From NCBI GenBank assembly GCA_947482825.1, contig CANKMT010000011.1, positions 5,050 to 69,049 on the forward strand: a DNA stretch of 64,000 bases, given 5' to 3'. This DNA comes from Betaproteobacteria bacterium. Lineage in GTDB: Bacteria; Pseudomonadota; Gammaproteobacteria; Burkholderiales; SG8-39. Below the pieces are notes generated by a model. It was not told the DNA's origin. It saw nothing but the letters and a program-made list of their open reading frames with translations, and ran no database searches. The position numbers and the translations under genes were made by a program. How positions within the stretch are numbered: position 1 is the first letter of the stretch; each line of letters begins with the position of its first letter. This document shows, in pieces, positions 1 to 63,583 of the stretch.

Positions 1-598
1 ACGTGGCCGCCGAGCATCGATGGAATCGATTCCGCGCCGCTCAGATACGGGACGTGGGCGAAGCGCGTGCCCGCCTTGGTGTTCAGGGTAGCCACCGTCA
101 GGTGCCCCATCGAACCGTTGCCGGGCGAGCCGACGCGGATCTTGCCGGGGTTGGCGCGGATGAAGTCGAGCGCCTCCTTCATCGTCGTCCATGGTGTCTT
201 GGCGTGCACCGAAAACATGATAGGCAGATTGGCTGCCTTGATGATCGGCTCGTAGTCGTCGGGCGTGTTGTAGGGCAGATCCTGGCGATGCGGCTGCACC
301 GTGAGCGTCGCCACGGCGGAGAGCGCGATCGTGTACCCGTCCGGCTGCGCCTGGATTGCGTCCGCGGTTCCGATCGTGCCCTGCCCCCCAGCCGGTTGGT
401 CACGATCACCGGCTGCCCGAGGTGCGCTTTCATCGCATCCGCCAGCAGGCGCGCGATGATGTCGGCGCCGCCTCCGGGCGCGTACGGAACCACCATGGTC
501 ACCGGGCGGGACGGGTAGGGTTGGGCAACGGCCGGTGCGGCGACCCCGATAACGAGCGCGCACAGGGCGACTAGTTTGAGCAGGCTGCTGGTTCGCAT
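1..598 (-). pseudogene. Bug/TctC-family periplasmic binding protein; C-terminus lies beyond the window edge; apparent frameshift in C6 run 384-389
   Basis: ORF 179..598 gives a signal peptide plus [29 protein letters not shown]...GQPVIVTNR, then degenerates to Arg/Ser junk. Changing frame at the homopolymer restores family-typical [24 protein letters not shown]...PGNGSMGHL...HVPYLSGAESIPSMLGGH, open to nt 1. Confidence 0.7.
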
Positions 599-1791
599 AC
601 TGGAGTTTCCTTTTTGTCTTGCTTGCTGAAGCGATGGACGGCGGTCGTGTTCTTCCTGATGAACTCCCAGTCGTAGACGACGCCGAGGCCCGGCCCCGCC
701 GGCACCGGCACGTAGCCGCCCGGCTCGACGGCGCCCAGGCCGTCGGAGTAGCCGCAGGCGCAGACCGGGGGCGAAATAAAATTTCCGACTTTGGGCCCGA
801 CCAGGCCCAACTCGTAATAGTTGGTGTTGCGGATGGCCGACATGCAGGCGCGCTGGGCCGGGCCGCAGCCGTGCAGTTCCACATCGAGCCCGAACGCCTC
901 GGCGAGGTGTGCGATTTTCATCGCGCCGGTAATGCCGAGGTCGAACTCCGGGTCTGCCCTGACGAAGTCCGTGGCTTCGGCGACGATCCAGTCCGCCTTG
1001 GGTTCGAGGCCGCGCACGTGCTCGGTGATCAACAGCGGCGTCCTGATCATCTGTCGCAGCTTCCGGTGCACTGCCTGCGACGTGCCGCAGTCCCGCAACG
1101 GATCCTCGTACCAGAAGAACGCCATGTCGTCGCAGGCCCTGCCCACGCGCAGCGCATCAGCGAAGGTGCGCAAGTCACCGCCCGGGTCGACCATCAGATC
1201 CAGCTTCCCGCCGAATGCCCGGCCGAGCGCGCGCACCGTCGCGACGGTCTCCTTCGCATCGCCGTCGGACCAGCCGCGGAACTTGAATCCGCGAAAGCCG
1301 AGGGCGGCGCATTGCTCGGCAAACGCAAGCACGCGCTCCGGATCCGACAGCCCGCCGTTGCGATCGCCGTGCATCGCGCTCGCGTAGACCGGCAGCCGCG
1401 TTCGATAGCCGCCGAGCAGCGTCGACACCGGGGTGTTCAGGCGCTTGCCGAGCAGATCCCACAGGCAGATGTCGATCGGCCCCACGCCGACGTGGGCGAC
1501 CGCCTGCAGCGCGCGCTTGAAATCGTCGTAGATCAGTTCGCGATGATTGGCGTCGCGCCCGGGGAGATTGGGCGCGAGGCGCAGAACCTGCGCCAGGTTG
1601 ATCTTCTTTCCGGCCATCTGCGCCGCGTACTCGCCGCGCGCGCCGTCCTCCGTGTCGATGGCAATGATCCAGTTGGTCATTGCCGTGGTCGCACCCGGCG
1701 CGTACACGCGGGCAAACCCTTCCGCATCGACGCCCAGGTCTGCGACCGGATAGGAAAACTCGGTCACTTCGACGCGTACGATTTTGGGCAT
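571..1791 (-). CDS. Enolase-superfamily enzyme (mandelate racemase/muconate lactonizing enzyme family, likely acid-sugar dehydratase)
   Basis: 406-aa ORF with MR/MLE-like N-terminal capping domain and barrel motifs ([23 protein letters not shown]). Its start lies 2 nt after the upstream aldolase stop. Confidence 0.8.
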
Positions 1792-5966: not shown

Positions 5967-7581
5967 GCACCAGTTCTCCGTTAACCGCAGTGGCCAGGAC
6001 GCTCGCCTCACGCAACGCCTCCGGGTCGCACGCCACCGGATCGACCGAGAGCGCCGTCCAGTCGCCAAGCAGACCCGCACGCAATACCCCGCGCTCTTGC
6101 TCGCTGAAGCTGACGTAGGCAGCGTCGCGCGTGTACATCGTGAGGGCTTCCTCGCCGCTCACCGCCTGCGCGCGCCCCAAGGGTTCGTCCGAGCCGGCAA
6201 TATGCCGCGTACGCGCCTGCCAGAGGCCTAAAAGAGGCGGGAAAGGCGTGATCGGCGAATCGGACCCGCCGCCGACCGTCACCCCGCCGTCGAGCCAGCC
6301 GCGCACCGGGGTCGCGTTCGCCATCAGCACGGCCCCAAAGCGCTTCATCAGCACCGGGCCGAACGAATACTGCATCGAGGGCTGGGTGGCGACCACGACC
6401 CCGAGCTTGGCGGCACGCGCGATGTTCTCCTTGCTCGGCCAGAGATAAGCATGGATCAGGCAGAAGCGCAGGTCCCGAATCGGGTGCTCGCAGTCGATCT
6501 CGGCGAACACTTCGAGCGCAATGTCGATCGCCCGGCCGCCGACGACATGCACGCCCATCGACCAGCCCCGCTGTGCGCATAGGCGTGCAATGCGCCGGAA
6601 CGATTCGGTCGGCGTGACCTGGATCCCGCAGTTGCATTTTTCGTCGGGAAACGGCTCGCGCATCAGCGCCGTGCCGAAGGTCGCCGCGCCGTCGAAAAAG
6701 ACCTTCACGCCGCCCAGCTTGAGGCGCGCATCGCCGAACCCGGTGCGGCCCGGGCTTGAAGCGATGCCAGCGAGCACTTCCTCGAGCGGGCGGCTCGAAT
6801 CGGCGAGCGGCATGACCACCGACCGCATGCTGAGTTCGCCCGCCGACCAAAGTGATTGGTAGACGCCGATGACCTCGGTGGTTAGGCCCGGGTCCATGAT
6901 GCCGGTGAGGCCGGCGGCGTGGTAGAGCTTCTGCACTTCGCGAAGCGATTGCCGCTGGTCGGCTTCGGAGGACGCCGGCACGTGGCGGCCGACGAGCTCG
7001 AATGCCGGCGGCTCGAGCAGGACACCGTTCGGCTCCCCGGCGGCGTCGTGCTCGATTCTTCCGCCTTCGGGTTCCGGCGTGTCGCGGGTGATTCCGGCAC
7101 GCGCGAGCGCCAGGCTGTTCACCGCGGCCGAGTGGCCGCCGCGAGGCAGGTACACCGGCCGGTCCGCGCACGCGCTATCGAGCTCCTCGCGCGTCGGGTG
7201 GCGGCCTTCCGCCAGATTGGCCACGTGCCATCCCGCCCCACACACTATCCATTCCGCCTTGGGGTTACGCGCGGCATATGCGCGAACCTCTACAACTATT
7301 TCGGCGATGCTCTTGCACCGGGTGAGGTCGACAAGGCGCTGCGCCATCCCGGTCCAGAACATGTGGTTATGCGTGTCGATGAGGCCGGGCACGACCGCGC
7401 CGCGATCGAACCCGATCTCGCGCGCGGCGGGGCCTGCGGCCGAGCGCGCCTCGGCAAGGCTGCCGACCGCCACGATGCGCCCGGCGCGGATCGCCATCGC
7501 CTCGGCGCGCGGGCGTTGCGGGTCCATCGTGACGATGTCCCCGCGCACCACCTGGTCCCCGCCGGAAACCTCTACCGTCAC
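5956..7581 (-). CDS. Metal-dependent amidohydrolase (Amidohydro_3/YtcJ-like)
   Basis: IVTMDPQRPRAEAMAIRAGRIVAVG...PGLIDTHNHMFWTG N-terminus and C-terminal GGSDSP motif. GTG 7581 overlaps the upstream stop (GTGA). The long ORF extension to 7776 is implausible. Confidence 0.8.
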   Translation of the reverse strand: MTVEVSGGDQVVRGDIVTMDPQRPRAEAMAIRAGRIVAVGSLAEARSAAGPAAREIGFDRGAVVPGLIDTHNHMFWTGMAQRLVDLTRCKSIAEIVVEVRAYAARNPKAEWIVCGAGWHVANLAEGRHPTREELDSACADRPVYLPRGGHSAAVNSLALARAGITRDTPEPEGGRIEHDAAGEPNGVLLEPPAFELVGRHVPASSEADQRQSLREVQKLYHAAGLTGIMDPGLTTEVIGVYQSLWSAGELSMRSVVMPLADSSRPLEEVLAGIASSPGRTGFGDARLKLGGVKVFFDGAATFGTALMREPFPDEKCNCGIQVTPTESFRRIARLCAQRGWSMGVHVVGGRAIDIALEVFAEIDCEHPIRDLRFCLIHAYLWPSKENIARAAKLGVVVATQPSMQYSFGPVLMKRFGAVLMANATPVRGWLDGGVTVGGGSDSPITPFPPLLGLWQARTRHIAGSDEPLGRAQAVSGEEALTMYTRDAAYVSFSEQERGVLRAGLLGDWTALSVDPVACDPEALREASVLATAVNGELVHGG

Positions 7582-8555: not shown

Positions 8556-8605
8556 GGTGGATCTCTCCAGTCGGTTGAGATGCGGGTTGAAATGCGGGTT
8601 GATTT

Positions 8606-9385
8606 TCAATCGGGCCGGGCGAGCGCCCAGTGGATGACGCGTTTCTCGAGGACCACGAACACCGCGTTCAGCGCGTAGCCGAGCACCGCGAGGATCACGA
8701 TCCACGCGTACATGTCGCGCACGCGGAAACTGCGCTGCATGTCGATGATGAGGTAGCCCAGGCCGCCGGTGCCTGCGAGCATCTCGGCGATGACCACGAG
8801 GATCAGGCCCAGGCCGAGGGCAACGCGCATGCCGGCGAGGATCAACGGCATGGCGGCTGGAAGCACGATCTTGAGCAGCAGCGCGAGCCGTCCGCAGCGA
8901 AACGTTCGGCCGGTGTTCACGAGGACCGGGTCCACGCCGCGCACGCCTTGCACGGCGTTGATGAGCACGGGGAAGAAAACACCCAGGCCCACGACCGTGA
9001 GCTTCATCGGGTCGCCCAGACCCAGGAAGAGGATGAGCGGCGGGAGCAGCGCCGGCTTGGGCAGCGGCCGCAGCACCTCCACCAGCGGCTCGAGCAGGTT
9101 GTACAAGGGACGGAAACGGCCCATCAGGAGCCCGACCACGACGGCGGCCGCGCTGGCCGCGAAATAGGCGGCGAAGAGCAGGTACAGAGTCGCGCCGAGG
9201 GGCGCGAACAACTCGCCGCTCGCGACGATTGCGCCCACCCGCTGGGCCACGGCGGAGGGCGGAGGGATAAGCGCCGCGTTGACCAGCCCGCCGCGCACGG
9301 CAAGCTCGACCGCGGCAAGCGCGAACAGGATCACGCCCGCGCCGAGGGCGCGCTCGGGCCAACGTTTGGCGGCGGCATCAGCCAT
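8606..9385 (-). CDS. ABC transporter permease (NitT/TauT type)
   Basis: 259-aa multi-TM protein paralogous to 5196..5966. 8-nt overlap with the upstream ATPase gene. Confidence 0.9.
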   Translation of the reverse strand: MADAAAKRWPERALGAGVILFALAAVELAVRGGLVNAALIPPPSAVAQRVGAIVASGELFAPLGATLYLLFAAYFAASAAAVVVGLLMGRFRPLYNLLEPLVEVLRPLPKPALLPPLILFLGLGDPMKLTVVGLGVFFPVLINAVQGVRGVDPVLVNTGRTFRCGRLALLLKIVLPAAMPLILAGMRVALGLGLILVVIAEMLAGTGGLGYLIIDMQRSFRVRDMYAWIVILAVLGYALNAVFVVLEKRVIHWALARPD

Positions 9386-11146: not shown

Positions 11147-12364
11147 TCAGCCCGGATTCGTTGCGCGGAATTTGTCGTAGATCACGCCTTTTGCGTACAA
11201 CGCGGCGATCTGTTCGTCCTTCATTCCGAGGCCTTTCAGCGTCGCGTCGGTTTGCTGACCGAGCCACGGCGCGGGCTCGGGTGTCCGCGTGAACGGCGCG
11301 CTCGCCTTGACGGGCGAGCCCATGTTCTTCATGCGGCCGATCTTCGGGTGATCGAGTTCCGTGACCATTTCTCGCGCGAGGATGTGCGGATCGGCCACCG
11401 ACTGTTCGTAGGTGTAGACCGGGCCGCCGGGGACGCCCGCGGCATCGAGCTTGGCAACCCAATGCGCCGTGGGCGCGGTCATCAACACCGACTCGATCGC
11501 ATCCTGCAGCGCATCGACATTCGCAAGGCGCGCCTCGGCGGGATTGAAGCGCGGATCCGAGATCAGTTCGGGCTTGTCGAGCACCTGTGTGCAAAGGGCC
11601 TTCCAGAGCTTGTCGTTATTCCCGCCCACGGTGACATAACCGTCCTGCGTCTTGAACGCCTGGTAAGGCGCATTCCTGCGGTGGCGCGTGCCGTTCGCCT
11701 GCGGAATTTCCCCTGCCCCGAAGTAAGCCCCGAACTCCCAGAACGTCCACGCGAACCCCGCTTCGAGCAGTGAAGTGTCGAGGAAGATCCCCTCCCCGGT
11801 CTTCAGCTTCTTGATGTAGGACCCGAGGATCGCGTAAAGCATGGTGCTGCCGGCGGCGATGTCGTTCATCGCGATGCCGACCTTGGCCGGGCGGCCGCCG
11901 GGATCGCCGGTCATGCGCATGATGCCGCTCATGCCCTGCGCGATGATGTCGAAGCCGCCGCGCCCGCCGTAAGGGCCGGTCTGGCCGAATCCGGAAATCG
12001 ATGCGTAAATGATTCCCGGGTTGATCTTGCGGATCGACTCGTAGTCGATGCCGAGCTTCTTCATGACGCCCGGCCGGTAGTTCTCGACCAGGATGTCGGC
12101 CTCGGCCGCCATGCGCATGAAGATGTCCATGCCTTCGGGCGTCTTGATGTCGAGCGCGATGCTCTTCTTGTTGCGGTTGAGCACCGCGAAGCAGTAGCTC
12201 TCGCCGTTCACCATCGGTGCGAGGCGCCGCGCCCCGTCGCCCTCGGGAAACGATTCGACCTTGGTCACGTCGGCCCCCATGTCGGCGAGCATCAGGGTGC
12301 AGTAAGGTCCGGCCATCAGCAGCGTGAAATCCAGGACCTTCACTCCTTCGAGCGGAAGCGACAC
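11147..12364 (-). CDS. Family III CoA-transferase (CaiB/BaiF family)
   Basis: N-terminal LEGVKVLDFTLLMAGPYCTLMLADMGADVTKVE and overall 405-aa architecture typical of CaiB/BaiF. Confidence 0.88.
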   Translation of the reverse strand: MSLPLEGVKVLDFTLLMAGPYCTLMLADMGADVTKVESFPEGDGARRLAPMVNGESYCFAVLNRNKKSIALDIKTPEGMDIFMRMAAEADILVENYRPGVMKKLGIDYESIRKINPGIIYASISGFGQTGPYGGRGGFDIIAQGMSGIMRMTGDPGGRPAKVGIAMNDIAAGSTMLYAILGSYIKKLKTGEGIFLDTSLLEAGFAWTFWEFGAYFGAGEIPQANGTRHRRNAPYQAFKTQDGYVTVGGNNDKLWKALCTQVLDKPELISDPRFNPAEARLANVDALQDAIESVLMTAPTAHWVAKLDAAGVPGGPVYTYEQSVADPHILAREMVTELDHPKIGRMKNMGSPVKASAPFTRTPEPAPWLGQQTDATLKGLGMKDEQIAALYAKGVIYDKFRATNPG

Positions 12365-12483: not shown

Positions 12484-13572
12484 ATGAGCCAGACCGCAGC
12501 CGCTTTGCCGCACATCGTCGAAGCCGAAGACCTCGAAGCCGCCGTCGAGCTTTGCTACACCGAAGGCTGGACCGACGGACTGCCGGTGATCCCGGCGACC
12601 GAACGGCCGGTGCGGCGCATCATCGATTACCTCGGGATGAAGCCGGAGCAGGTCATCGGCGTCATTCCCCCGCGCCGCGGCATTGCCACGGTCGAGAAGA
12701 TCGCGATCAACTGCGTCATGGCGGGCTGCCTGCCGGAGTACGTGCCGATCGTGCTCGCAGCCGTTCAAGCAATGCTGGAACCGGAATTCAACCTCGAGGG
12801 CGTGCAGACGACCACGAATCCCTGCGCGCCCCTGGTAATGGTGAGCGGGCCGGCGGTGCGCAAGCTGGGGTTCAACACCAAGGACTGCGCCTTGGGCCAC
12901 GGTTCGCGCGCCAACGCGGCCATCGGTCGCGCGGTGCGCCTGATCCTGTGGAACATCGGCGGCGGCTTTCCCGGCTCACCGTGCCGCACTACGCACGGCC
13001 ATCCCGGTTACTACAGCTACTGCATTGCAGAAGACCCCGAAACGAATCCGTGGGAACCGCTACACGTAACGCGCGGTTTCAAGCCAGAGGACACGGTAGT
13101 CACGGTCACCGCGGTCGATGGCCCGCATTCGGTGGCCACCGGCGCGCTCGTGAATACGCCCGGGCAGGTGCTCACGAACATCGCCGATTCGATAGCGCGG
13201 CTCGGGAGCAACAACCAGTACGGCGGGCAACTGGTCGTCGTCCTCGGACCGATGGCCGCAAAGAACCTCGCCGACGGCGGCTACGACAAGGCCGGCGTGG
13301 TCGACGAACTGGTGAAACGCTCGACGCGCACCGTGGCGGAAATCCTGCGCAACAAGAACAGCGACCACATGCCCGCCGAAGAAATGGCGGAACTGCGCTC
13401 GAAGAAGGGCGACGAGCTCTTCCACTACATCCGGTCCGCCGAGAATGTCGTGCTGCTGACCACCGGCAGCTGGGGCGCAGTCGGCGGTTACGCGGCGGTC
13501 TGCCCGGGTTGGGGGCACTTCGGCGGGTTCACTCAAACCAAATGCGTGCAGTTCCCTAGAAATGGAGCCTGA
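12484..13572 (+). CDS. Conserved protein of unknown function, translationally linked to the UGSC selenoprotein gene
   Basis: Strong coding signal. Start ATG 12484 chosen (MSQTAAALPHIVEAEDLEAAVELCYTEGWTDGLPVIP...). Stop is 2 nt before the 13575 ATG. I recognise no family for it. Confidence 0.7.
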   Translation: MSQTAAALPHIVEAEDLEAAVELCYTEGWTDGLPVIPATERPVRRIIDYLGMKPEQVIGVIPPRRGIATVEKIAINCVMAGCLPEYVPIVLAAVQAMLEPEFNLEGVQTTTNPCAPLVMVSGPAVRKLGFNTKDCALGHGSRANAAIGRAVRLILWNIGGGFPGSPCRTTHGHPGYYSYCIAEDPETNPWEPLHVTRGFKPEDTVVTVTAVDGPHSVATGALVNTPGQVLTNIADSIARLGSNNQYGGQLVVVLGPMAAKNLADGGYDKAGVVDELVKRSTRTVAEILRNKNSDHMPAEEMAELRSKKGDELFHYIRSAENVVLLTTGSWGAVGGYAAVCPGWGHFGGFTQTKCVQFPRNGA

Positions 13573-13574
13573 GA

Positions 13575-14111
13575 ATGGTGATCGCCGTATACAACCCGGT
13601 CGGTGAAGTCGCGCAGAGCGAATCGGTGCGAGCCACAACGATGACTGGACTGAATGGGAGGTCGGTGGGTTTCGTCTTCAATCATCACCCGGCCGTGACC
13701 GGGCTGTGGGCCGAGCTCGAAAAAGGCGTCGAGCTCGACTTCCGCCCCGTGGGCGTGCAGCGCATCGCGAAGGCGAACATTTCGATGCCGCAGCCGGCGG
13801 CGCAACTGGCGAAGCTAGCGGCGGAGGTCGACTACGCACTGGGGGGCGTCGGCGCCTGAGGGTCCTGCACTGCCGCCGCCGTGCGCGATGGCTGTTCGCT
13901 GGTCAAGCTGGGCAAACCGGTCGTGGTGGTGGTGCAGGCCACTTTCGAGAATGCTGCGCGCGTGCATGCCAAGGGTCTCGGATGCCCGGACCTTGCGATC
14001 TGCGCGTATCCGCATCCTTCGCCGGGCGCGCCCGCCGGGCCGGAGGTCATGGCCGCGCTGGCGCTGCAAATACGCAATCGGGTCGTCGAGCTGATATCCG
14101 CCGGCCATTAG
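13575..14111 (+). CDS. UGSC-motif selenoprotein candidate (Sec encoded by in-frame TGA 13857-13859); 178 aa when read through
   Basis: ORFs 13575..13859 and 13881..14111 share one frame, with only the TGA between them. The junction reads GVGA-U-GSC-TAAAVRDGC. SelD and SelU are in the same window. Confidence 0.7.
13867..13884 (+). other. Candidate SECIS-like stem-loop just downstream of the UGA
   Basis: GCAC (13867-13870) pairs with GUGC (13881-13884) around a 10-nt loop, extendable by a U-G pair. By-eye only, not energy-evaluated; alternative pairings exist. Confidence 0.25.
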
Positions 14112-14357
14112 GCTGGGTGCGCCGGAAAGGCCATATGGGACGTGAATGTACCGGTATCGATTCACGAACTGGCCGGAGAGCCAATATCCATGCGCAACCT
14201 TGGCCCGGATTCTTGAAGATTCTGAATATTTGGAGATCCGGAATGAGACTCGCACGCAATGCCTGACCCCCTTCGTCAGACCCCTGTTACACAATACCTG
14301 TTGTGCGTTTGCCGCCCCGGCGGTTCAATCGGACATCGAACGCCCGGAGGGCATCAA

Positions 14358-14780
14358 ATGAAACTCGTGAAAGCAGCAGTGTTGGCGGCGGCCATCGCAA
14401 CCGCCGCTGCGCCGGGGCTTGTGGAGGCGCGCGGAGGCCGGGGCGGCGGTTGGGGCTTTGGATGGGGGCTCGGGTTGGGACTGGTGCTGAGCGCACCGCT
14501 GTATGCCTCCGCGTACTACGGCCCGCGGTACTACTCGCCCTACATTTATGCGCCGCCCTACTACGCGCCGCCTGTCGTCTACACGTATCCGTCCCCGTCG
14601 TACGCGGCTCCGCAATACGTCGAGCCACAGTATTCGCAGCAGCCCGCCCCAGTCCAGCAGGCACAGCAGGCGCAAGCCAACCTGTGGTACTTCTGCCCGG
14701 CGTCGAACGGCTACTACCCGTACGTGCGAGAGTGCCCCTCGGGCTGGCAGCCAGTCTCCCCCCGCCCGCCCGGCTACTAA
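14358..14780 (+). CDS. Small secreted Gly/Pro/Tyr-rich protein with a C-terminal WYFC...YYPYV..CP.GW motif
   Basis: GGAGG RBS at 14346-14350, signal peptide MKLVKAAVLAAAIATAAAPGLVEA, low-complexity YYxP repeats, and a conserved-looking two-Cys C-terminal module. Confidence 0.7.
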   Translation: MKLVKAAVLAAAIATAAAPGLVEARGGRGGGWGFGWGLGLGLVLSAPLYASAYYGPRYYSPYIYAPPYYAPPVVYTYPSPSYAAPQYVEPQYSQQPAPVQQAQQAQANLWYFCPASNGYYPYVRECPSGWQPVSPRPPGY

Positions 14781-14784
14781 ACCA

Positions 14785-14838
14785 AAATTGGTGTCAGAGT
14801 CGACTTTCCGCTGCGGAAAATCGACTCTGACACCATTT
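14785..14838. repeat. Palindromic REP/MITE-like element, family member a (26-bp arms, 3-nt loop); likely bidirectional terminator
   Basis: aaattGGTGTCAGAGTCGACTTTCCG ctg CGGAAAATCGACTCTGACACCattt lies between convergent genes. Its right arm overlaps the stop codon of 14837..15793. Confidence 0.8.
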
Positions 14839-15793
14839 ATGCGGCTCGGCGGTGCTCGTAGTAAGGGCGCTCGCGTTCATCCAGTCGCGCGTTGAGGGCC
14901 TTGCGGTCGGTGCCGGGGTTCAGCCAGGCGTCCACCGCGCGCGCTTCAAGGGGAATGATGCAGCGGTCATGCCCCGTCGCCGCGACCTCGGGCGGCGGCT
15001 CGTCGGTGATCGCGGCGAACGAATAGAGGTCTGGCTTGCCTGGTGATTGCCAGCGGTCCCACAGGCAGGCGACCAGCATCGGGGCCGACGAGCGCGGGTT
15101 GAAGTGCAGGATCACGTTCTGCGGCTTCTCGCCCTCGCGCAGGGGCCGCTTCTCGAAATCGTGCAGCGCCACGTTCTCGTAGAAGCTCTTCGCCACCAGA
15201 ACTGCGTGGTGGCGGCCGAAGACGTTTTTCCAGAAGCCTTCGAGGTTGTCGCGGCGCGCGTTGTAGAGGCCGTCGTAGCGGCGGTCGTGCGCCTCGGGCT
15301 TGCCGTCCGGGCGGCAGTGGTAGCGCATCGGGCGGATTACACGGCGCCCCTCCTGCAAGATCGCCACCGGCGCGTACCAGAACGGGAAGATGCGCGAATC
15401 GTCCTCGGTGGTTTCGGCGCGGCCGAGATCGGCGAGCTTGCCCATGGACCACTTTATTTTCTTGGTGGCGATGCGTTGGTCTTCGAGCGCTTTCTTCGTC
15501 TGCTTCACGGCGAGTGCACGCTCGGCGTCGGCGAGGCGCTTGCGCAGCGCGAAGAGTGAGGATTCGAGGCCACTGCGGACTTTCGAACGATGCCGGTCGA
15601 TCAGGTCTTTGATCCGCTCTTCGGCCGTGGATTGAGGCTTATCGAAATTGGCCTCGAGAGCGCGGGCGACCTTGATCGAGTCGTCCTGCAGCCGGCTTGC
15701 AAAAAGTTGCTCAATGGCCGAGAAATCGACCTCGGGCGCCACCATGCGCGCGAGCTTCTTGAGGTCCTGCTCGACCATCGCGGAATAGCACAT
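14837..15793 (-). CDS. SOS-response-associated peptidase (SRAP/YedK, DUF159)-like protein with a large N-terminal insertion
   Basis: Starts MC (Cys2). The C-terminal 190 aa match SRAP blocks (LYNARRDNL..., FYENV, SFAAITDEPPPEVAATGHDRCIIPL). About 120 aa of coiled-coil-like sequence lie between Cys2 and the core. Confidence 0.6.
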   Translation of the reverse strand: MCYSAMVEQDLKKLARMVAPEVDFSAIEQLFASRLQDDSIKVARALEANFDKPQSTAEERIKDLIDRHRSKVRSGLESSLFALRKRLADAERALAVKQTKKALEDQRIATKKIKWSMGKLADLGRAETTEDDSRIFPFWYAPVAILQEGRRVIRPMRYHCRPDGKPEAHDRRYDGLYNARRDNLEGFWKNVFGRHHAVLVAKSFYENVALHDFEKRPLREGEKPQNVILHFNPRSSAPMLVACLWDRWQSPGKPDLYSFAAITDEPPPEVAATGHDRCIIPLEARAVDAWLNPGTDRKALNARLDERERPYYEHRRAA

Positions 15794-41360: not shown

Positions 41361-42437
41361 GTGAAACCCGCACCCAAACCCCTCGTCGCGATATCGGCCG
41401 AAGCGCTCGCCGCCTTCGACGCGATCATCGACGTGCGCTCGCCCGCCGAATACGCAGAGGACCATGTGCCGGGCGCAATCTCGGCGCCAGTGCTCGACAA
41501 CGAGGAGCGTGCCCGGGTCGGCACGTTGTACAAGCAGGTCTCGCCTTTCGACGCGAAGAAGCTCGGCGCGGCGCTGGTGTCGAAGAATATCGCGCGCCAT
41601 ATCGAAACCGTTTTCGCCCCGATGCCGCGGCAATGGAAGCCGCTCGTTTATTGCTGGCGCGGAGGCAAGCGCTCGGGCGCGATGGCCCACGTGCTGCGCG
41701 AGATTGGCTGGGACGCGTGGAGCATCGAAGGCGGCTACAAGGCCTACCGCCGGTTCCTGATCGACGCGCTGGCCACCCTGCCCGGCCACTACACCTACCG
41801 CGTGATCCACGGCACGACCGGCAGCGGCAAGAGCCGCCTGCTTCGCGCCCTCAACGCCGCGGGCGCGCAGGTGCTCGACCTCGAAGACCTCGCGGCGCAC
41901 CGCGGCTCGGTCCTAGGCAATTTTCCCGACCGGTCGCAGCCGGCGCAGAAGATGTTCGAGACGCTGGTGTGGGACACGCTGCGCCGATTCGATGCGGGAA
42001 AGCCGGTGTTCGTCGAGGGCGAGTCGAAAAAGATCGGCCAGCTCCAGGTGCCCGAGGCGCTCATGTTCGCGATGCGCGCAAGCGAGTGCGTGGTGCTCGA
42101 AGCGAGCCGCGAGACTCGCATCGCGTTGTTGTCCGACGAGTACCAGCACTTCTTTGCCGCGCCTGCGGGCCTCTACGCTCAGCTCGATTGCCTGCATGGG
42201 CTGTACGGCACGAAAGTGATCGACGACTGGAAATCGCTGGCGGGGCGAGGCCAATGGGACGAGTTGGTAGGCGCCCTGCTCGACGAACACTACGACCCGG
42301 CCTATCGCCGCTCTGCGCTGCGCAATTTTTCTCGGATGCCAAAAGCCGGAACGCTCAGGCTCGATTCACCCTCGGACGAAGCCTTTGCTTCGCTGGCGCG
42401 CAGCTTGCTCGACGCGAGGCAACTCGAAGCAGCCTGA
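41361..42437 (+). CDS. selU: tRNA 2-selenouridine synthase SelU (MnmH/YbbB)
   Basis: Rhodanese domain with active-site YCWRGGKRSG, then P-loop GTTGSGKS. 358 aa, GTG start. Confidence 0.88.
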   Translation: MKPAPKPLVAISAEALAAFDAIIDVRSPAEYAEDHVPGAISAPVLDNEERARVGTLYKQVSPFDAKKLGAALVSKNIARHIETVFAPMPRQWKPLVYCWRGGKRSGAMAHVLREIGWDAWSIEGGYKAYRRFLIDALATLPGHYTYRVIHGTTGSGKSRLLRALNAAGAQVLDLEDLAAHRGSVLGNFPDRSQPAQKMFETLVWDTLRRFDAGKPVFVEGESKKIGQLQVPEALMFAMRASECVVLEASRETRIALLSDEYQHFFAAPAGLYAQLDCLHGLYGTKVIDDWKSLAGRGQWDELVGALLDEHYDPAYRRSALRNFSRMPKAGTLRLDSPSDEAFASLARSLLDARQLEAA

Positions 42438-42471: not shown

Positions 42472-43200
42472 ATGACCGACAAGAAAGCAGTGCTGGTGGT
42501 GGGCGCAGGGGATGCAACCGGTGGCGCCATTGCGCGCCGTTTCGCGCGCGAGGGCTACATCGCCTGCGTGACACGCCGCACCGCGGACAAGCTCGCACCG
42601 CTGGTGGCGCAGATCGAGGCCGCCGGTGGCAAGGCCGTGCCTTTCGGCTCGGACGCACGCAAGGAAGAAGAGGTCATCAAGCTCGTCGCCCAGATCGAAA
42701 AGGAGATCGCGCCGATCGAAGTGGCCGTGTTCAACGTCGGCGGCAACGTGCGCTTCGGCATCACCGAGACCACGACACGCGTCTACACCAAGGTCTGGGA
42801 AATGGCAGCGCTGGCCGGCTTCCTGATGGGCCGCGAGGTCGCCAAGGTCATGTTGCCGCGCGAGCGCGGCTCGATCTTCTTCACCGGCGCGACGGCCAGC
42901 CTGCGCGGGCGCGACGGGTTTGCCGCGTTCGCGGGCGCCAAGCATGCGTTGCGGGCCCTCGCCCAGAGCATGGCGCGCGAGCTCGGACCCAAGGGCATCC
43001 ACGTGGCCCACCTCGTGATCGACGGCGCGATCGACACGGCCTTCATCCGCGAGACGTTCCCCGAACGTTACAAGCTGAAGGAACGCGAAGGCATCCTCGA
43101 CCCGGACTCGATCGCAGAAGCGTATTGGCAGCTTCACGTGCAGAAAAGGAACGCCTGGACGCACGAGCTGGACCTGCGGCCCTGGCTGGAGGCGTGGTGA
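42472..43200 (+). CDS. SDR-family oxidoreductase
   Basis: VVGAGDATGGAIARRF Rossmann motif, NVGG, catalytic region GAKHALRAL. 242 aa. Confidence 0.8.
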   Translation: MTDKKAVLVVGAGDATGGAIARRFAREGYIACVTRRTADKLAPLVAQIEAAGGKAVPFGSDARKEEEVIKLVAQIEKEIAPIEVAVFNVGGNVRFGITETTTRVYTKVWEMAALAGFLMGREVAKVMLPRERGSIFFTGATASLRGRDGFAAFAGAKHALRALAQSMARELGPKGIHVAHLVIDGAIDTAFIRETFPERYKLKEREGILDPDSIAEAYWQLHVQKRNAWTHELDLRPWLEAW

Positions 43201-44180
43201 TGGCAAACGCAAAGACGGTTGAGTTCTGGTTCGATTTCGGCAGCCCGGCGAGCTACCTCGCGTGGTTCCAGCTGCCCAAGGTCGCCGCATCGCGCGGCGC
43301 CTCGATCGACTGGCGGCCGATGCTGCTCGGCGGCGTATTCCAGGCCACCAGCAACCGCAGCCCGGTCGAGATCCCCGCCAAGGGCCGCTGGATGCTTGGC
43401 GACCTGCCGCGCTGGGCCGCGCGCTACGGCGCGCCCTACAAACGCAATCCCCACTTCCCGATCAACACGCTTACCCTCATGCGCGGCGCGGTCGGCCTGC
43501 AACTGAGGAACGACCCGCGCTTCCTGAAATACGTCGGGACGATCTTTCGGGCGATGTGGGAAGAGGAACGCAACATGGGCGACCCGGCCGTCGTGGGGGC
43601 GACGCTCGCCGGCGCCGGGTTCGATCCCGCCGAATTCATGGCGCTGGTCGGTGACCCCGCGGTCAAGGATCGGCTGAAGGCCGTCACGCAGGAAGCCGTC
43701 GAGCGCGGGGTTTTCGGCGCACCGGCAATGTTCATCGACGGGCAGATGCATTTCGGGCAGGACCGGATCGAATTCGTGGCCGACCGGATGGCGGCGAATG
43801 CGGACGAGGCCACTGCGGCCTGCATGGACACGCTCGACCGCTTCATGGCGGGGCTCAATGCCTACGATGCGGCGGCGATGGACGCAGCGATGCATTTCCC
43901 GCACGTTCGGATTGCGGGCGGCACCGTCAAGGTCTACGAGAAGCCGGGGTCGAACCCGATGGACCTCTTCGACAAGCTCAGGAAGGAAGACAACTGGGCG
44001 CGCAGCGAATGGAACGAGCGCAAGGTCGTCCAGAGAAGCGAGTCCAAGGTCCACATGGCGCTCACCTACACGCGCTATCGCGCCGAAGGCAGCGTGCTCG
44101 GGGTGTACGAATCGCTCTGCGTGCTCACGCTGAAAGCTGGCCGCTGGGGCATCCAGGCGCGTTCCAGCTTCGGGCCGTGA
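43200..44180 (+). CDS. 2-hydroxychromene-2-carboxylate isomerase-like DsbA-fold protein fused to an NTF2/SnoaL-like C-terminal domain
   Basis: VEFWFDFGSPASYLAW...VFGAPAMFIDGQMHFGQDRIEF is the HCCA-isomerase family. An extra ~125-aa C-terminal domain follows. TGATG overlap with the SDR stop. Confidence 0.7.
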   Translation: MANAKTVEFWFDFGSPASYLAWFQLPKVAASRGASIDWRPMLLGGVFQATSNRSPVEIPAKGRWMLGDLPRWAARYGAPYKRNPHFPINTLTLMRGAVGLQLRNDPRFLKYVGTIFRAMWEEERNMGDPAVVGATLAGAGFDPAEFMALVGDPAVKDRLKAVTQEAVERGVFGAPAMFIDGQMHFGQDRIEFVADRMAANADEATAACMDTLDRFMAGLNAYDAAAMDAAMHFPHVRIAGGTVKVYEKPGSNPMDLFDKLRKEDNWARSEWNERKVVQRSESKVHMALTYTRYRAEGSVLGVYESLCVLTLKAGRWGIQARSSFGP

Positions 44181-44269: not shown

Positions 44270-46549
44270 TTATTCATTGAGGACGATCGGTTCCAGCGCA
44301 TCGCCCTGGGCCAGGACACGCCCGATGATTGCGGCCCGGCCGTAGCCCAGTGCTCGCAATTCGGCGATGCATTCGCCAGCCCGCGACGCGGGAATCCCGG
44401 CCAGAAGACCGCCGGCCGTCTGGGGGTCGAACACCAGCGCATAGCGCGGATGGTTGACCATCGCCTCCTGGTTCCTGAGCGCGCGTCGCAGGCGCACGTT
44501 GGCGGGCTGGAGCGAGCTCAGGATGCCCGCCTTCACGGTTTCCTCGGCGCCTTCGAGCACGGGCAGCGCGGAAAGATCGATCTCGGCATCCACGCCCGAG
44601 GCGCGCGTCATCTCCACGAGGTGCCCCAACAAACCGAAGCCGGTGAGGTCGGTGCAGGCCGAAGCGCCGTGGTCGATCAGGCAACGCGCGCCCAAACGGT
44701 TCGAGTGGCACATCGAATGGAGCGCCGCGTCGATCCAGCGGCCGCGCGCCTTCAGCTTCGCGTGCGCGGCGAAGAGCGTGCCGGTGCCGATCGGCTTGGT
44801 GAGGATCAATGCGTCGCCCGGTTGCAGGCCGCCTTTCTTCATGACGGCCGCGAGCCCCTCGTCGATGAGGCCATTGACCGCGAAGCCCAGCGCGAGCTCG
44901 GCGCCCTCGCCCGTGTGCCCGCCGACGAGCGCGCAACCGGCCTCGTTAAGCACTTCGATCGCGCCGGTCATCATCTGGGTCAGAACATCTTCGACCTTGG
45001 ATTCAAGCCCCGGCGGCACGGTCACCACAGCCGTAGCCGACTGGGCCTCGGCCCCCATCGCGAAGATGTCGCCCAACGCGTGGTTGGCCGCGACCTTGCC
45101 GAACACGTAGGGGTCGTCGACGAAAGCGCGAAAGAAATCGACGCTGTGCACCAGCGCCTTGCCTGGCGGAACACGCATGACCGCAGCGTCGTCCGGCGAC
45201 TTCAGCCCGATCAGGACGTCGTCGCGTTCAATCGGGTTCAGCCCACCGAGCGCCCGGGTAAGCACGCTCGCGCCGACCTTGGCGCCGCAGCCGCCACAGC
45301 GCATCGCAATTGCCGAGATCGCCTGCGCGGCCTCTTCGCCCTCCAGCTTTACAGTGGTCGCCGCGAAAGGGCGCGGGGCCGATTCGTCCATGGCCGGCAG
45401 GTCGGTGAATTTCTCCATGAAACGCCGGTCGACCCAGTCCTTCCAGGCCCAGACCCAGTCGCCTTCGGCGTGCAGCGCGCCTCGTGACGCGATTGCATGT
45501 TTGTCGCCGGTGCTGATGAGGGCCAGCCAGCCCTTCTGCGGGCGGTAGGGCTCCAGCGGCCGGCTCTCCACTGCGCGTCGCAGGTTTTCCGCAAGCGGGG
45601 GGCCCTGGCGGACCGCGAACACGCCGGCCTTCTCACGCGGGTGATCTACCATGTTCGCGATGTCGCCGGCGGCAAAGACATCCGGGTCGGTCTCGGTCTG
45701 CAACGTGTCGGTGACCCGAATGAAGCCCGCATCGTCCAAAGCGAGGCCGGTCCCGCTCAGCCAGTCCGCGCCGGAGGCGCGCGTGACCCAGACGATTTCG
45801 TCGGCATCTACAGATTCGCCGCGCGGCATGTGCAGGCGCCCGGCCTCGACGACCTGGACGGGCGAATTGAGGTGGATCTCCACGCCGCGCTCTTTCAGGA
45901 CGCGCAGGAATTTCGCGCGCACTGCGGCATTGTGGGTGGGCAGGATCTCGTTGCCTGCATCGATCAAATGGAATTTCGGCGCCTCGGACTCGCGTCCGAG
46001 CAAGCGCAGCTCGTTGTGAAGGCGGAACTGCATTGCAAGCGTGAGTTCGACGCCGCCCGCACCGGCGCCTACCACACCTATCGACCGCGCGCCCCGGGAC
46101 CCGAGAACACGGTCGAGCAATGCGAGCCAGCGATCGTTGAAAGCATGGATCGGCTTGACCGGCACCGCATGCTCCGCCGCGCCCGGCACGTTGCCGAGCA
46201 TTGGCGCTGAACCGATGTTGATCGAAAGCTTGTCGTAGGCGACCGGCGGACGGTGGCGGCAGAGCACCTTGCGCGCGGCGCGGTCGATGCCGATCGCTTC
46301 GTCGCTGTAGAACCGGGCGCCGGCGAATCCCGCGAGGCGCCGCAAGTCGATGTGGACTTCGTCGTAGGCGTAGTGGCCGGCGACATAGCCCGGCAGCATC
46401 CCGGAATACGGCGTGTGCGTATCGCGGCAGATCACGGTGAGGCGAACGCCGGGCATGGGCCGCATGCCGAATCGGCGCAGCACGCCGACATGGCTGTGCC
46501 CGCCGCCGACCAGCACGATGTCCCTCAGCACGGGTTGAGCCGTCTGCAT
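44270..46549 (-). CDS. selD: Bifunctional FAD-dependent pyridine-nucleotide-disulfide oxidoreductase / selenide, water dikinase (SelD) fusion
   Basis: N-terminal VLVGGGHSHVG and VGAGAGGVE dinucleotide folds (~370 aa). C-terminal SelD with CGGCGAKV active-site loop (Cys form) and AIR-synthase-like domains. Confidence 0.88.
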   Translation of the reverse strand: MQTAQPVLRDIVLVGGGHSHVGVLRRFGMRPMPGVRLTVICRDTHTPYSGMLPGYVAGHYAYDEVHIDLRRLAGFAGARFYSDEAIGIDRAARKVLCRHRPPVAYDKLSINIGSAPMLGNVPGAAEHAVPVKPIHAFNDRWLALLDRVLGSRGARSIGVVGAGAGGVELTLAMQFRLHNELRLLGRESEAPKFHLIDAGNEILPTHNAAVRAKFLRVLKERGVEIHLNSPVQVVEAGRLHMPRGESVDADEIVWVTRASGADWLSGTGLALDDAGFIRVTDTLQTETDPDVFAAGDIANMVDHPREKAGVFAVRQGPPLAENLRRAVESRPLEPYRPQKGWLALISTGDKHAIASRGALHAEGDWVWAWKDWVDRRFMEKFTDLPAMDESAPRPFAATTVKLEGEEAAQAISAIAMRCGGCGAKVGASVLTRALGGLNPIERDDVLIGLKSPDDAAVMRVPPGKALVHSVDFFRAFVDDPYVFGKVAANHALGDIFAMGAEAQSATAVVTVPPGLESKVEDVLTQMMTGAIEVLNEAGCALVGGHTGEGAELALGFAVNGLIDEGLAAVMKKGGLQPGDALILTKPIGTGTLFAAHAKLKARGRWIDAALHSMCHSNRLGARCLIDHGASACTDLTGFGLLGHLVEMTRASGVDAEIDLSALPVLEGAEETVKAGILSSLQPANVRLRRALRNQEAMVNHPRYALVFDPQTAGGLLAGIPASRAGECIAELRALGYGRAAIIGRVLAQGDALEPIVLNE

Positions 46550-60847: not shown

Positions 60848-63583
60848 ATGGCCCAGAACAGCGTCGCCCAATTCGCGAGCGAGCTCAAGGTCCAGCCTGC
60901 CGTCCTGCTGGAGCAGCTCAAGGCCGCGGGCGTGGAAAAGGCGGTACCCGAAGACTCGCTCAGCGAGCAGGACAAGTCGCGCCTGCTCGAATACCTACGC
61001 CGCTCGCATGGCTCGCAGGAACCCAAGAACAAGATCACGCTGACGCGTAAGCAGACCAGCGAAATCAAGAAATCCGACGCAACGGGAAAAGCGAGGACCA
61101 TTCAGGTCGAAGTGCGCAAGCGCCGCGTATTCATCAAGCGCGACCCGAACGAGCCGCTGGAGGCGGAAGCGCCGGCGGTCGCGGCGCCGCCGGCAGAGCC
61201 CGTGGCCCCTGCTGCAGCCGTGGCGCCGCCTGCGCCAGTCGCTCCCGAAGTCCCAGTAGCGAAAGCGGCCGCTCCCGCAGTCGCACCGTTGCCGCCTGCG
61301 CCGCCTGTTGAGGCAGAGGCCAAGGCTTCCGCGCCGCCCCCCGTCCAAGCCGCCGCGCCAGCACCCGCGCCGATGCCGGTTTTCGGCCTGGACCCGAAGC
61401 AGATCGAGATTCGGAAGGAAGAAGCCAAGCGCCACAAAAAGCTTTCCGACATCCAGGAAGCCGAACTTCGCGACAAGCAGGAGCGCGAGCGCAGGGACTT
61501 GGAGCATAAGGTCGCCGAGCTTGAGGCTCAGGCTGCGCTTGAGAAGGCCAAGTCCGAGGCTGCCTTGAAACCTGCGGCCGGGCCGGGGACGGAAGGGACG
61601 CTGCACAAGCCCAAGTTGAGCGCCGCGGATGCCGCCAAGGCCGACAAGAAGCCGAAGAAGGTCAAGACGACGACCGTCCTCAAGGACGATTCGGCGCGCC
61701 GCAGGATGATCAAGACGCGTGGCGATGCGGGCGGCGGTGTGGCCGGCTGGCACGCGCGCGGCGGACGCCACAAGACAGGCCACGCCGAACCGGAAACGAC
61801 TGCATTCAGCGCGCCGGTCGAGCCAGTGGTACGCGAAGTGGCTGTGCCCGAGACGATCACGGTCGGCGAGCTTGCGCACAAGATGTCGGTGAAGGCGGCC
61901 GAGGTGATCAAGGCGCTCATGAAGCTGGGCTCGATGGTCACGATCAACCAGGTGCTCGACCAGGAAACGGCGATCATCCTCGTCCAGGAAATGGGCCACA
62001 AGGCGAAGGCGGCCAAGCTGGACGATCCCGAGGCCTATTTCGAGGAGAACGCGGATGCGGCTGTGGCAGAGCAGACGCAGCGCCCCCCGGTGGTAACCGT
62101 CATGGGTCACGTCGACCATGGCAAGACCTCGTTGCTGGACTACATCCGCCGCACCAAGGTGGCGGCCGGCGAGGCAGGCGGCATTACACAGCACATCGGT
62201 GCGTATCACGTCGAGACCGCGCGTGGTGTCGTCACATTCCTGGACACGCCGGGCCATGAAGCGTTTACCGCTATGCGCGCGCGTGGCGCGAAAGCCACGG
62301 ACATCGTGATCCTCGTGGTTGCGGCCGACGATGGCGTCATGCCGCAGACCATCGAGGCGATCAACCACGCCAAGGCGGCCGGCGTGCCCATCGTGGTCGC
62401 GCTCAACAAGATCGACAAACCTGAAGCGTCGCCTGAAAAGGTCAGGCAGGAGCTCGTGAGCCACGGCGTGATCCCGGAAGAGTACGGCGGCGAGTCGCCC
62501 TTCGTGCCGGTTTCGGCAAAGACAGGCCAGGGCATCGACGAGCTGCTGGAGCAGGTCCTCCTGCAAGCCGAAGTGCTTGAACTGAAGGCCCCGGTCAGTG
62601 CGTTGGCTCGTGGCGTCGTGATCGAGGCGCGTCTGGACAAGGGACGCGGGCCGGTGGCGACCTTGCTCGTCCAGTCGGGCACCCTCAAGCGAGGCGACGT
62701 CGTGCTTACGGGTTCGGTGTTCGGGCGCGTGCGCGCAATGCTCGACGAGGCGGGTCGCCCGGTGCAGACCGCGGGACCATCGATCCCGGTGGAGATCCAG
62801 GGGTTGTCGGACGTCCCCCAGGCGGGCGAGGAGATGGCGGTGCTCACCGACGAGCGCAAGGCGCGCGAAATCGCGTTGTTCCGCCAGGGCAAGTTCCGCG
62901 ACGTGAAACTTGCCAAGCAGCGCGCGGCCAAGCTCGACGGCATTTTCGAGAACATGGCCGATGGGGTGAAGAAGACCCTCGCGCTGGTCGTCAAGTCGGA
63001 TGTCCAGGGTTCGCAGGAAGCCCTGGTCCATGCGCTCTCGAGGCTTTCGAACGAGGAGGTGAAGGTGACCGTGGTCCACTCGGGCGTGGGTGGCATCACC
63101 GAATCGGACGTCAACCTCGCGATGGCTTCGCGGGCGGTGATCATCGGGTTCAACACCCGCGCAGACGTGACTGCCAGGAAGCTGATCGAGTCATCGGGGA
63201 TCGATGTTCGCTACTACAACATCATTTACGATGCGGTCGACGAGATCAAGGCCGCCCTGTCGGGGATGCTTTCGCCGGAGAGGAAGGAAAGCGTGCTCGG
63301 GATGGTCGAAGTGCGCCAGGTGTTCCGGATCTCCAAGGTCGGCACGGTCGCGGGCTGCTACGTGCTCGAAGGCCTCGTCCGGCGCAATGCGCAAGTGCGC
63401 GTGCTGCGGGACAACGTGGTCATCCACACCGGCGAAATCGATGCGCTCAAGCGGTTCAAGGATGACCAGCGCGAAGTAAAGGCCGGGTTCGAGTGCGGCA
63501 TCTCGCTGAAGAACTTCAACGACCTGAACGAAAAAGACCAGTTCGAAGTGTTCGAGGTGCAGGAGGTGGCGCGCACGCTTTGA
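60848..63583 (+). CDS. infB: Translation initiation factor IF-2
   Basis: [15 protein letters not shown]..., Ala/Pro-rich linker, G-domain [16 protein letters not shown] / DTPGHEAF / NKID. 911 aa. Confidence 0.95.

Follow-up and report, generated by a model that had tools for sequence, protein, structure and literature searches.

Two reading frames joined by an in-frame UGA probably form a selenoprotein gene of a divergent UGSC clade, with a candidate SECIS hairpin and a conserved Cys-rich partner

UGSC has been a predicted selenoprotein family since 2008 (Zhang and Gladyshev, PMC2398784), and its members (Pfam PF24696, NCBIfam NF041046) are single-domain proteins of ~180 residues that alternate between Sec and Cys in a U/C-G-S-C column. 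In the Global Ocean Sampling data 255 Sec forms were found versus 21 Cys forms, with a higher frequency of the family in non-marine samples; some members were described as fused to a domain termed ‘Unknown_1’, and a ‘likely Trx-like fold’ was suggested (PMC2398784). Among about 5,200 genomes, 33 UGSC genes were present in 26 (PMC5029168), and the family is listed without a function in reviews from 2022 and 2026. In total it counts roughly 1,800 members. No 75Se labelling or mass spectrometry of any UGSC protein is reported in the UGSC literature cited here. The gene described below is a correct rediscovery, namely of a divergent-clade member of this known family. It shares the length, the single domain and the U/C-G-S-C column with its Sec/Cys alternation, and it adjoins a gene for the ‘Unknown_1’ partner that is fused to UGSC elsewhere. 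By contrast, its clade is characterized by the sequence ...VGVGA-U-GSC-T[AS][AG]AVRDG..., its product is 28% identical to the canonical member of Achromobacter insolitus, and structure modelling predicts a flavodoxin-like fold instead of the Trx-like one.

The gene lies on the forward strand of a betaproteobacterial contig, within a window of 64,000 nucleotides, by which the whole stretch of DNA analysed is meant. A preliminary description had joined two ORFs (13575..13859 and 13881..14111) across an in-frame UGA into one protein of 178 residues and had proposed a selenoprotein gene missed by stop-to-stop ORF calling. Coordinates and frame were re-checked and hold: from ATG 13575 to the TAG at 14109-14111 the frame is open but for TGA 13857-13859, the joined product reads ...DYALGGVGA-U-GSC-TAAAVRDG..., and the UGA indeed falls inside a U/C-x-x-C motif (13857-13868), in which U95-G-S-C98 aligns with the CGSC of homologues. 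With a probability of about 0.88, the two short ORFs would be a single UGSC-family gene (13575..14111, 178 codons, PF24696 match) with one Sec codon at this UGA. The proposal of a missed gene is borne out by the Sec/Cys column, the conserved TGA, a covarying hairpin and a single predicted fold that extends over both halves. A ribosome-binding site, GGAG (13563..13566), can be read 8 nt before ATG 13575, and since the stop codon of the upstream gene (TGA 13570-72) falls between the two, both genes are tightly coupled. Gene callers divide the UGSC gene into products of 94 and 76 aa, as they would if two separate genes were present, one ending at the UGA and the other restarting at GTG 13881, and many database entries of 94 aa and of 75-81 aa follow this pattern. 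However, the GTG is an internal codon that serves as the mechanical start of the second ORF, with neither a Shine-Dalgarno sequence nor a purine-rich stretch before it, in line with the earlier remark that the downstream half has no convincing start of its own, and the GSCTAAA codons between TGA and GTG are kept in frame.

Written with C in place of U, the joined protein scores 111.8 bits against PF24696, versus a cut-off of 25 (E 5e-32), and residues 5-174 align with positions 2-170 of the 172-position profile, spanning the TGA. The preliminary description had also pointed to an NCBI model named ‘UGSC family (seleno)protein’. This model exists (NF041046), but it is an equivalog model with a curated cut-off of 125, under which the window protein remains with 71.7 bits (E 6e-20); it is therefore a homologue from a divergent clade and not an equivalog by the NCBI threshold, and its family membership is assigned through PF24696 rather than NF041046. 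When 1.84 billion representative proteins were searched with a profile, 540 relatives were obtained, which fall into three groups: ~27 representatives of 94-100 aa, all of which end exactly with ...VGVGA, several representatives of 75-81 aa that start with (M/V)RDG, and ~95 full-length proteins (170-215 aa) in which C-G-S-C occupies the U-G-S-C columns, both cysteines being nearly invariant. The question raised earlier, whether homologues carry Sec or Cys in the UGA column, is answered by Cys (CGSC) in the ~95 full-length proteins. Such a mixture of fragments and full-length Cys forms is the usual sign of a selenoprotein family in which gene callers cut the Sec forms short. The fragment lengths merely mirror the position of the TGA, and in the Cys-form homologues one continuous chain carries the motif in its middle, which argues further against two genes. 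A separate case is P0003 (117 aa, from an ENA contig of 625 bp), the first half of which is nearly identical to residues 42-85 of the window UGSC protein, while its second part is PanB-like (PF02548), probably as the result of chimeric assembly or of a rearrangement at this site.

The locus was found in three more independent metagenome assemblies with 99.9% identity, the TGA being present in all and the sole difference being G13843T (Gly90Val); there, too, gene callers split the UGSC gene into 94-aa and 76-aa products. Related DNA was fetched by search patterns without the Sec codon, in which the Sec position was masked as X. This gave 18 loci from GTDB genomes, mostly MAGs of Burkholderiales or other Betaproteobacteria but with two Dehalococcoidia, one Pyrinomonadaceae (Acidobacteria) and one labelled Streptomyces among them, and three loci from a metagenome scan, two of which are complete. 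At the homologous column all 20 related loci carry a TGA (18/18 from genomes and 2/2 complete ones from metagenomes), followed in each by in-frame GSC(T/C)..AVRD and then ~80 more conserved codons; with the window included, 21/21 Sec-form DNAs have TGA at the motif column. A pseudogene or a sequencing error, in which a Cys codon (TGC or TGT) turned into TGA in a dead gene, would require a single base change, and the best full-length homologues in the protein database, P0001 (49% identity) and P0002 (44%), do have Cys at this position. This explanation is nevertheless extremely improbable given the recurrence of the TGA in three independent assemblies and in 20 diverged relatives, the open frame beyond it with conservation at the protein level, and a covarying hairpin after it that is specific to the TGA forms. 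Within the window UGA terminates 15 of the 30 long high-GC3 ORFs, selU and infB included, and is therefore an ordinary stop codon in this host, without reassignment of the code. The retention of the TGA in all relatives and the ordinary use of UGA as a stop together make the pseudogene, error, two-gene and reassigned-code readings very unlikely. Thirteen other in-frame TGAs with high GC3 on both sides occur in the window (e.g. 26535 and 40004 on the forward strand, 32216 and 33572 on the reverse strand), and most of them look like adjacent genes that share a frame by chance.

The SECIS-like hairpin comprises 21 nt (13872..13892, forward strand) and starts 12 nt past the UGA. Positions 13872-75 pair with 13889-92 and 13877-79 with 13885-87, the two parts being separated by a 1x1 internal loop (C13876/A13888), and the apical loop is CGUGC (13880-13884), with G13881 and U13882 invariant. 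In an alignment of 45 nt from the UGA of the 21 Sec-form genes, numbered with the U of UGA as 1, RNAalifold independently gave one hairpin with the pairs 16-36, 17-35, 18-34, 19-33, 21-31, 22-30 and 23-29, the 1x1 internal loop at 20/32 and the apical loop C24 G25 U26 G27 C28. Across these genes 98% of the cells are paired and four of the seven pairs show compensatory changes, which represent perhaps four lineage events. None of 500 shuffles, a control that ignores relatedness, matches the observed pairing and covariation, and partners slid by 1-3 columns pair in at most 52%. The outermost pair is G13872-C13892 in the window and U-A in most relatives, the change being Ser-to-Ala and compensated at a synonymous Gly position. 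Furthermore, third-base entropy is 0-0.28 bits in the five codons at positions 16-30 of this numbering, compared to 0.7-1.8 bits in neighbouring codons of invariant Gly, Val, Ser and Pro residues. Ala within the hairpin is encoded by GCC in 34/34 cases, versus 31% of the Ala codons elsewhere in the same genes, and the frozen sites are therefore not explained by codon bias; such per-amino-acid codon counts were informative, whereas a log-likelihood codon-usage statistic gave no discrimination between blocks. The two closest Cys-form genes, the DNA of which was taken for comparison, encode the same peptide TAAAV by different codons and have lost hairpin pairs, their folding energies being -3.9 and -5.6 kcal/mol versus -9.3 kcal/mol for the exact structure in the window. 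Single-sequence folding is uninformative at 65% GC (z -0.84 for the hairpin alone and +1.9 for a 69-nt stretch), so the support for the hairpin is entirely comparative, and taken alone it is no better than shuffled sequence. Rfam at gathering thresholds gave no match in the 64-kb window.

A conserved stem-loop after the UGA, as anticipated in the preliminary description, therefore exists, but its position is another one: the complementary segments named there, GCAC 13867-70 and GUGC 13881-84, are present and are not the conserved stem. Extended to 9 bp (6-14/25-33 after the UGA), that stem is equalled by 154 of 500 shuffles, is broken without compensation in four relatives (L021, L024, L026 and L027) and is mutually exclusive with the 13872-13892 hairpin. 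Two other pairings were rejected as well, a register variant with the upper stem 20-23/27-30 and the loop CGU, which pairs in 89% of the cells versus 98%, and a long-range pairing of GGTCCTGCAC (13861-70) with GTGCAGGCC (13932-40), which is due to chance and is lost even in the closest relative, L008. The bSECIS consensus of Zhang and Gladyshev, as summarized in PMC13188914, asks for a 3-9 nt loop that has a G within its first two positions, followed by G or U, for 16-37 nt from UGA to loop, an upper stem of 4-16 bp and an energy of -7.5 kcal/mol or below. The window hairpin conforms to it with a 5-nt loop carrying G then U, with 20 nt from UGA to loop and in its energy, whereas its upper stem above the internal loop has only 3 bp. 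Like the bacterial SECIS of the E. coli fdhF type, it is a coding-region stem-loop just 3′ of the UGA with a small loop and an early G-U; unlike it, it is very compact (7 bp, 1x1 internal loop), and its sequence is unrelated to that of fdhF. The segment 13872-13892 thus fits the consensus as a candidate SelB-type SECIS.

Two genes of selenium metabolism had been noted in the same window and both are found, although they mark only the selenouridine trait: SelD and SelU establish selenium use, and both are expected, too, in organisms that make only selenouridine. The tRNA 2-selenouridine synthase MnmH/SelU which has no part in Sec decoding, is encoded at 41361..42437 on the forward strand (NF008752, 494.6 bits), and SelD, the selenophosphate synthetase, at 44270..46549 on the reverse strand as a fusion with an N-terminal pyridine-nucleotide-disulfide oxidoreductase domain (TIGR03169, 513 bits). 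The name of the latter model, ‘Nterm_to_SelD’, is the label of this N-terminal domain; the SelD part proper (TIGR00476 selD, 296 bits) comprises residues 416-721, in the C-terminal half of the 759-aa fusion. This protein is the Ndh-SelD fusion, which is reported to occur commonly in ocean metagenomes. Its ORF has no in-frame stop, and SelD is therefore not itself a selenoprotein. Between selU and selD (42472-44180, forward strand), gene calls on the identical contig L001 place a short-chain dehydrogenase (242 aa) and a 326-aa DSBA-family protein, which could be selenium-related accessory genes. Neither selA nor selB was found in the 64-kb window or in the fetched loci, and the window and 22 loci contained no tRNA of any kind, tRNA-Sec (selC) included; a GHVDHGKT motif at 62105, considered as SelB, belongs to IF2. 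The case for Sec is accordingly made by the UGSC gene itself rather than by selA, selB or selC.

Downstream structure is known in general to stimulate stop-codon read-through, and the UGA might be read without selenium, as Trp or Cys by a near-cognate tRNA or as Cys on tRNA-Sec, with the hairpin acting only as a stimulator. A window that holds SelD and SelU but no selA, selB or tRNA-Sec would be compatible with this. By contrast, the hairpin agrees with the SelB-type consensus in distance, loop size and G-U, the Sec forms of UGSC far exceed the Cys forms in ocean metagenomes (PMC2398784), SelD is present, and UGA is an efficient stop in half of the long ORFs of the window, so that selenium-free read-through is improbable. 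Under the preferred reading of Sec insertion, the hairpin would bind SelB-GTP-Sec-tRNASec with the UGA in the ribosomal A site, as in established bacterial Sec decoding, and Sec would be inserted in competition with RF2, SelD encoded in the window supplying the selenium for Sec-tRNA synthesis.

The fold was predicted for the Cys homologue P0001, which is 49% identical to the window protein. Its AlphaFold2 model (pLDDT 90, pTM 0.84) consists of five alternating beta-alpha units, and the Sec/Cys position falls where strand 3 (87-93) gives way to helix 3 (96-111). The codons for strands 1-3 precede the UGA and those for strands 4-5 follow it, so that the two ORFs cannot be independent domains in this model, and a single five-stranded sheet predicted across both halves adds to the evidence that makes two separate genes very improbable. 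Foldseek ranks lumazine synthases and flavodoxins as the best PDB matches of the model (E 1e-4 to 1e-3, TM 0.4-0.5), the top 50 contain no thioredoxin-fold protein, and the mixed four-stranded sheet of the thioredoxin fold (beta-alpha-beta-alpha-beta-beta-alpha) is not seen. The fold is hence predicted to be flavodoxin-like and not thioredoxin-like; the five beta-alpha units and the lack of a thioredoxin-fold match do not support the remark of 2008 (PMC2398784). With the thiol-disulfide oxidoreductase selenoproteins of the UxxC/CxxC type (Trx-, Prx- and DsbA-like) the model shares a Sec-x-x-Cys at the junction of a strand and a helix N-terminus, in the geometry of a redox pair, whereas the five strictly alternating beta-alpha units, the missing Trx-fold match and an obligatory-looking partner set it apart. 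The placement of U-x-x-C at a helix N-terminus would be compatible with a selenenylsulfide redox couple, in which Sec95 and Cys98, at the end of strand 3 and in the first turn of helix 3, would cycle between selenol/thiol and selenenylsulfide.

The partner gene, directly upstream of UGSC (12484..13572, forward strand), encodes a Cys-rich protein of 362 aa, a longer ORF beginning at TTG 12376, and UGSC is translationally coupled to it. No Pfam or NCBIfam model matches the partner even at E ≤ 1, and databases contain at least 3,947 homologues with 55-89% identity, all named hypothetical; Cys24, Cys82, Cys114, Cys167, Cys180, His139 and His173 are invariant. With UGSC fusion proteins of 541-560 aa, the N-terminus of which is a Cys-form UGSC domain, the partner shares 47% (P0043) and 33% identity over their last 350 residues, and by this similarity it is evidently the ‘Unknown_1’ fusion domain (PMC2398784). 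By tblastn it lies next to UGSC in 19 of 21 Sec loci, directly upstream in 18 and downstream in the other, and it is also directly upstream in both Cys loci. An AlphaFold2 model of the partner is confident, with a pLDDT of 85 and a pTM of 0.87. A PDB sequence search found no solved relative, and class I fumarate hydratase, the best Foldseek match (E 3e-3, TM 0.24), was too weak to be accepted as a fold relative. Residues 169-177, with the invariant T-T-H-G-H-P-G-Y, are the only internal segment of the model with pLDDT < 50, which suggests a conserved, apparently mobile loop and a candidate contact site for the UGSC subunit or a substrate. Many genomes carry two paralogous partner-UGSC pairs within a few kb (e.g. 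L029 at 6001-6570 and 8560-9087; L012, L018, L026, L028 and L030), and in the MAG MFD00392.bin.2.275 a Sec-form UGSC gene occurs on each of two contigs; the partner-UGSC module appears to have been duplicated repeatedly.

Divergent from the partner-UGSC pair, a family III CoA-transferase, which is a recurrent neighbour of the module, is encoded at 11147..12364 on the reverse strand (PF02515, E 6e-124). The closest relative, L008, from a MAG (CAZREB01) labelled ‘uncultured Bordetella sp.’, is syntenic with the window at 88-92% protein identity, and the window is therefore probably of Burkholderiales origin. The commonest neighbours across the loci are TctC/Bug carboxylate-binding proteins (31 copies in 15 loci), and others are HpcH/HpaI aldolase, MmgE/PrpD, hydantoinase A/B, acyl-CoA ligase, enoyl-CoA hydratase and MaoC dehydratase. 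In the complete genome of the cultured Achromobacter insolitus (CP026973.1, 4,966,871-4,970,936) the order is partner, UGSC (a Cys form named as such by NCBI), CoA-transferase III and TctC, with a divergent LysR regulator; the identities to the window proteins are 39% for the partner, 28% for UGSC and 36% for the CoA-transferase, and, given its presence in this species, the module predates the separation of the divergent clade from the canonical family. On the other side of UGSC, a 173-aa ORF (14259-14780, forward strand) belongs to no family and may not be a gene, since its conservation in L008 is limited to the last 32 residues; it is followed by an SRAP (SOS-response-associated peptidase) homologue (14837-15793, reverse strand) that is 88% conserved there. 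At the edge of the window (571-1791, reverse strand) lies a gene of the mandelate racemase/muconate-lactonizing-enzyme family, which on related contigs (L032) adjoins an HpcH/HpaI aldolase and a complete TctCBA transporter; by its gene content this region is another carboxylate-catabolism cluster.

A small Sec subunit acting with larger Cys-containing subunits on carboxylate substrates is found in glycine and D-proline reductases (GrdA, GrdB, PrdB), and the same subunit logic may, by analogy, apply to UGSC and its partner. These reductases differ, however, in that no sequence, profile or fold similarity to UGSC was detected; furthermore, no pyruvoyl proprotein gene lies nearby, and the UGSC hosts are aerobic-type Burkholderiales and not amino-acid-fermenting anaerobes. 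In a two-component enzyme that uses an imported carboxylic acid or its CoA ester as substrate, UGSC could be the small, redox-active subunit, a proposal in which the chemistry is held with low confidence. As a tentative suggestion, which we regard as possible rather than likely, UGSC and the partner would be subunits of a selenium-dependent enzyme of carboxylate/acyl-CoA catabolism that is fed by TctC-type transporters and family III CoA-transferases and is widespread in Burkholderiales and Chloroflexi. The assignment of an enzymatic role to the pair is guilt by association, and the TctC context is weak because TctC genes are very abundant in Burkholderiales anyway.

The findings on UGSC overturn no current knowledge. 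New here are a SECIS model for the clade that is supported by covariation, evidence of how strong and how widespread the partner linkage is, the CoA-transferase/TctC context, which extends to a culturable model organism, and a predicted fold that is not thioredoxin-like. In public assemblies, each copy of the UGSC genes of this clade that was found is divided into two hypothetical ORFs, and since the joined protein in addition scores below the NCBI naming threshold, counts of selenoproteins in soil and freshwater Burkholderiales MAGs are too low. UGSC is one of the most abundant selenoproteins predicted from aquatic metagenomes, and its function becomes experimentally approachable through the link to the partner across phyla and in fusions, the CoA-transferase/TctC context and the four-gene module with a Cys form in Achromobacter insolitus. 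If the proposed role in carboxylate/acyl-CoA catabolism were true, it would provide a function for one of the most abundant selenoprotein families of these metagenomes.
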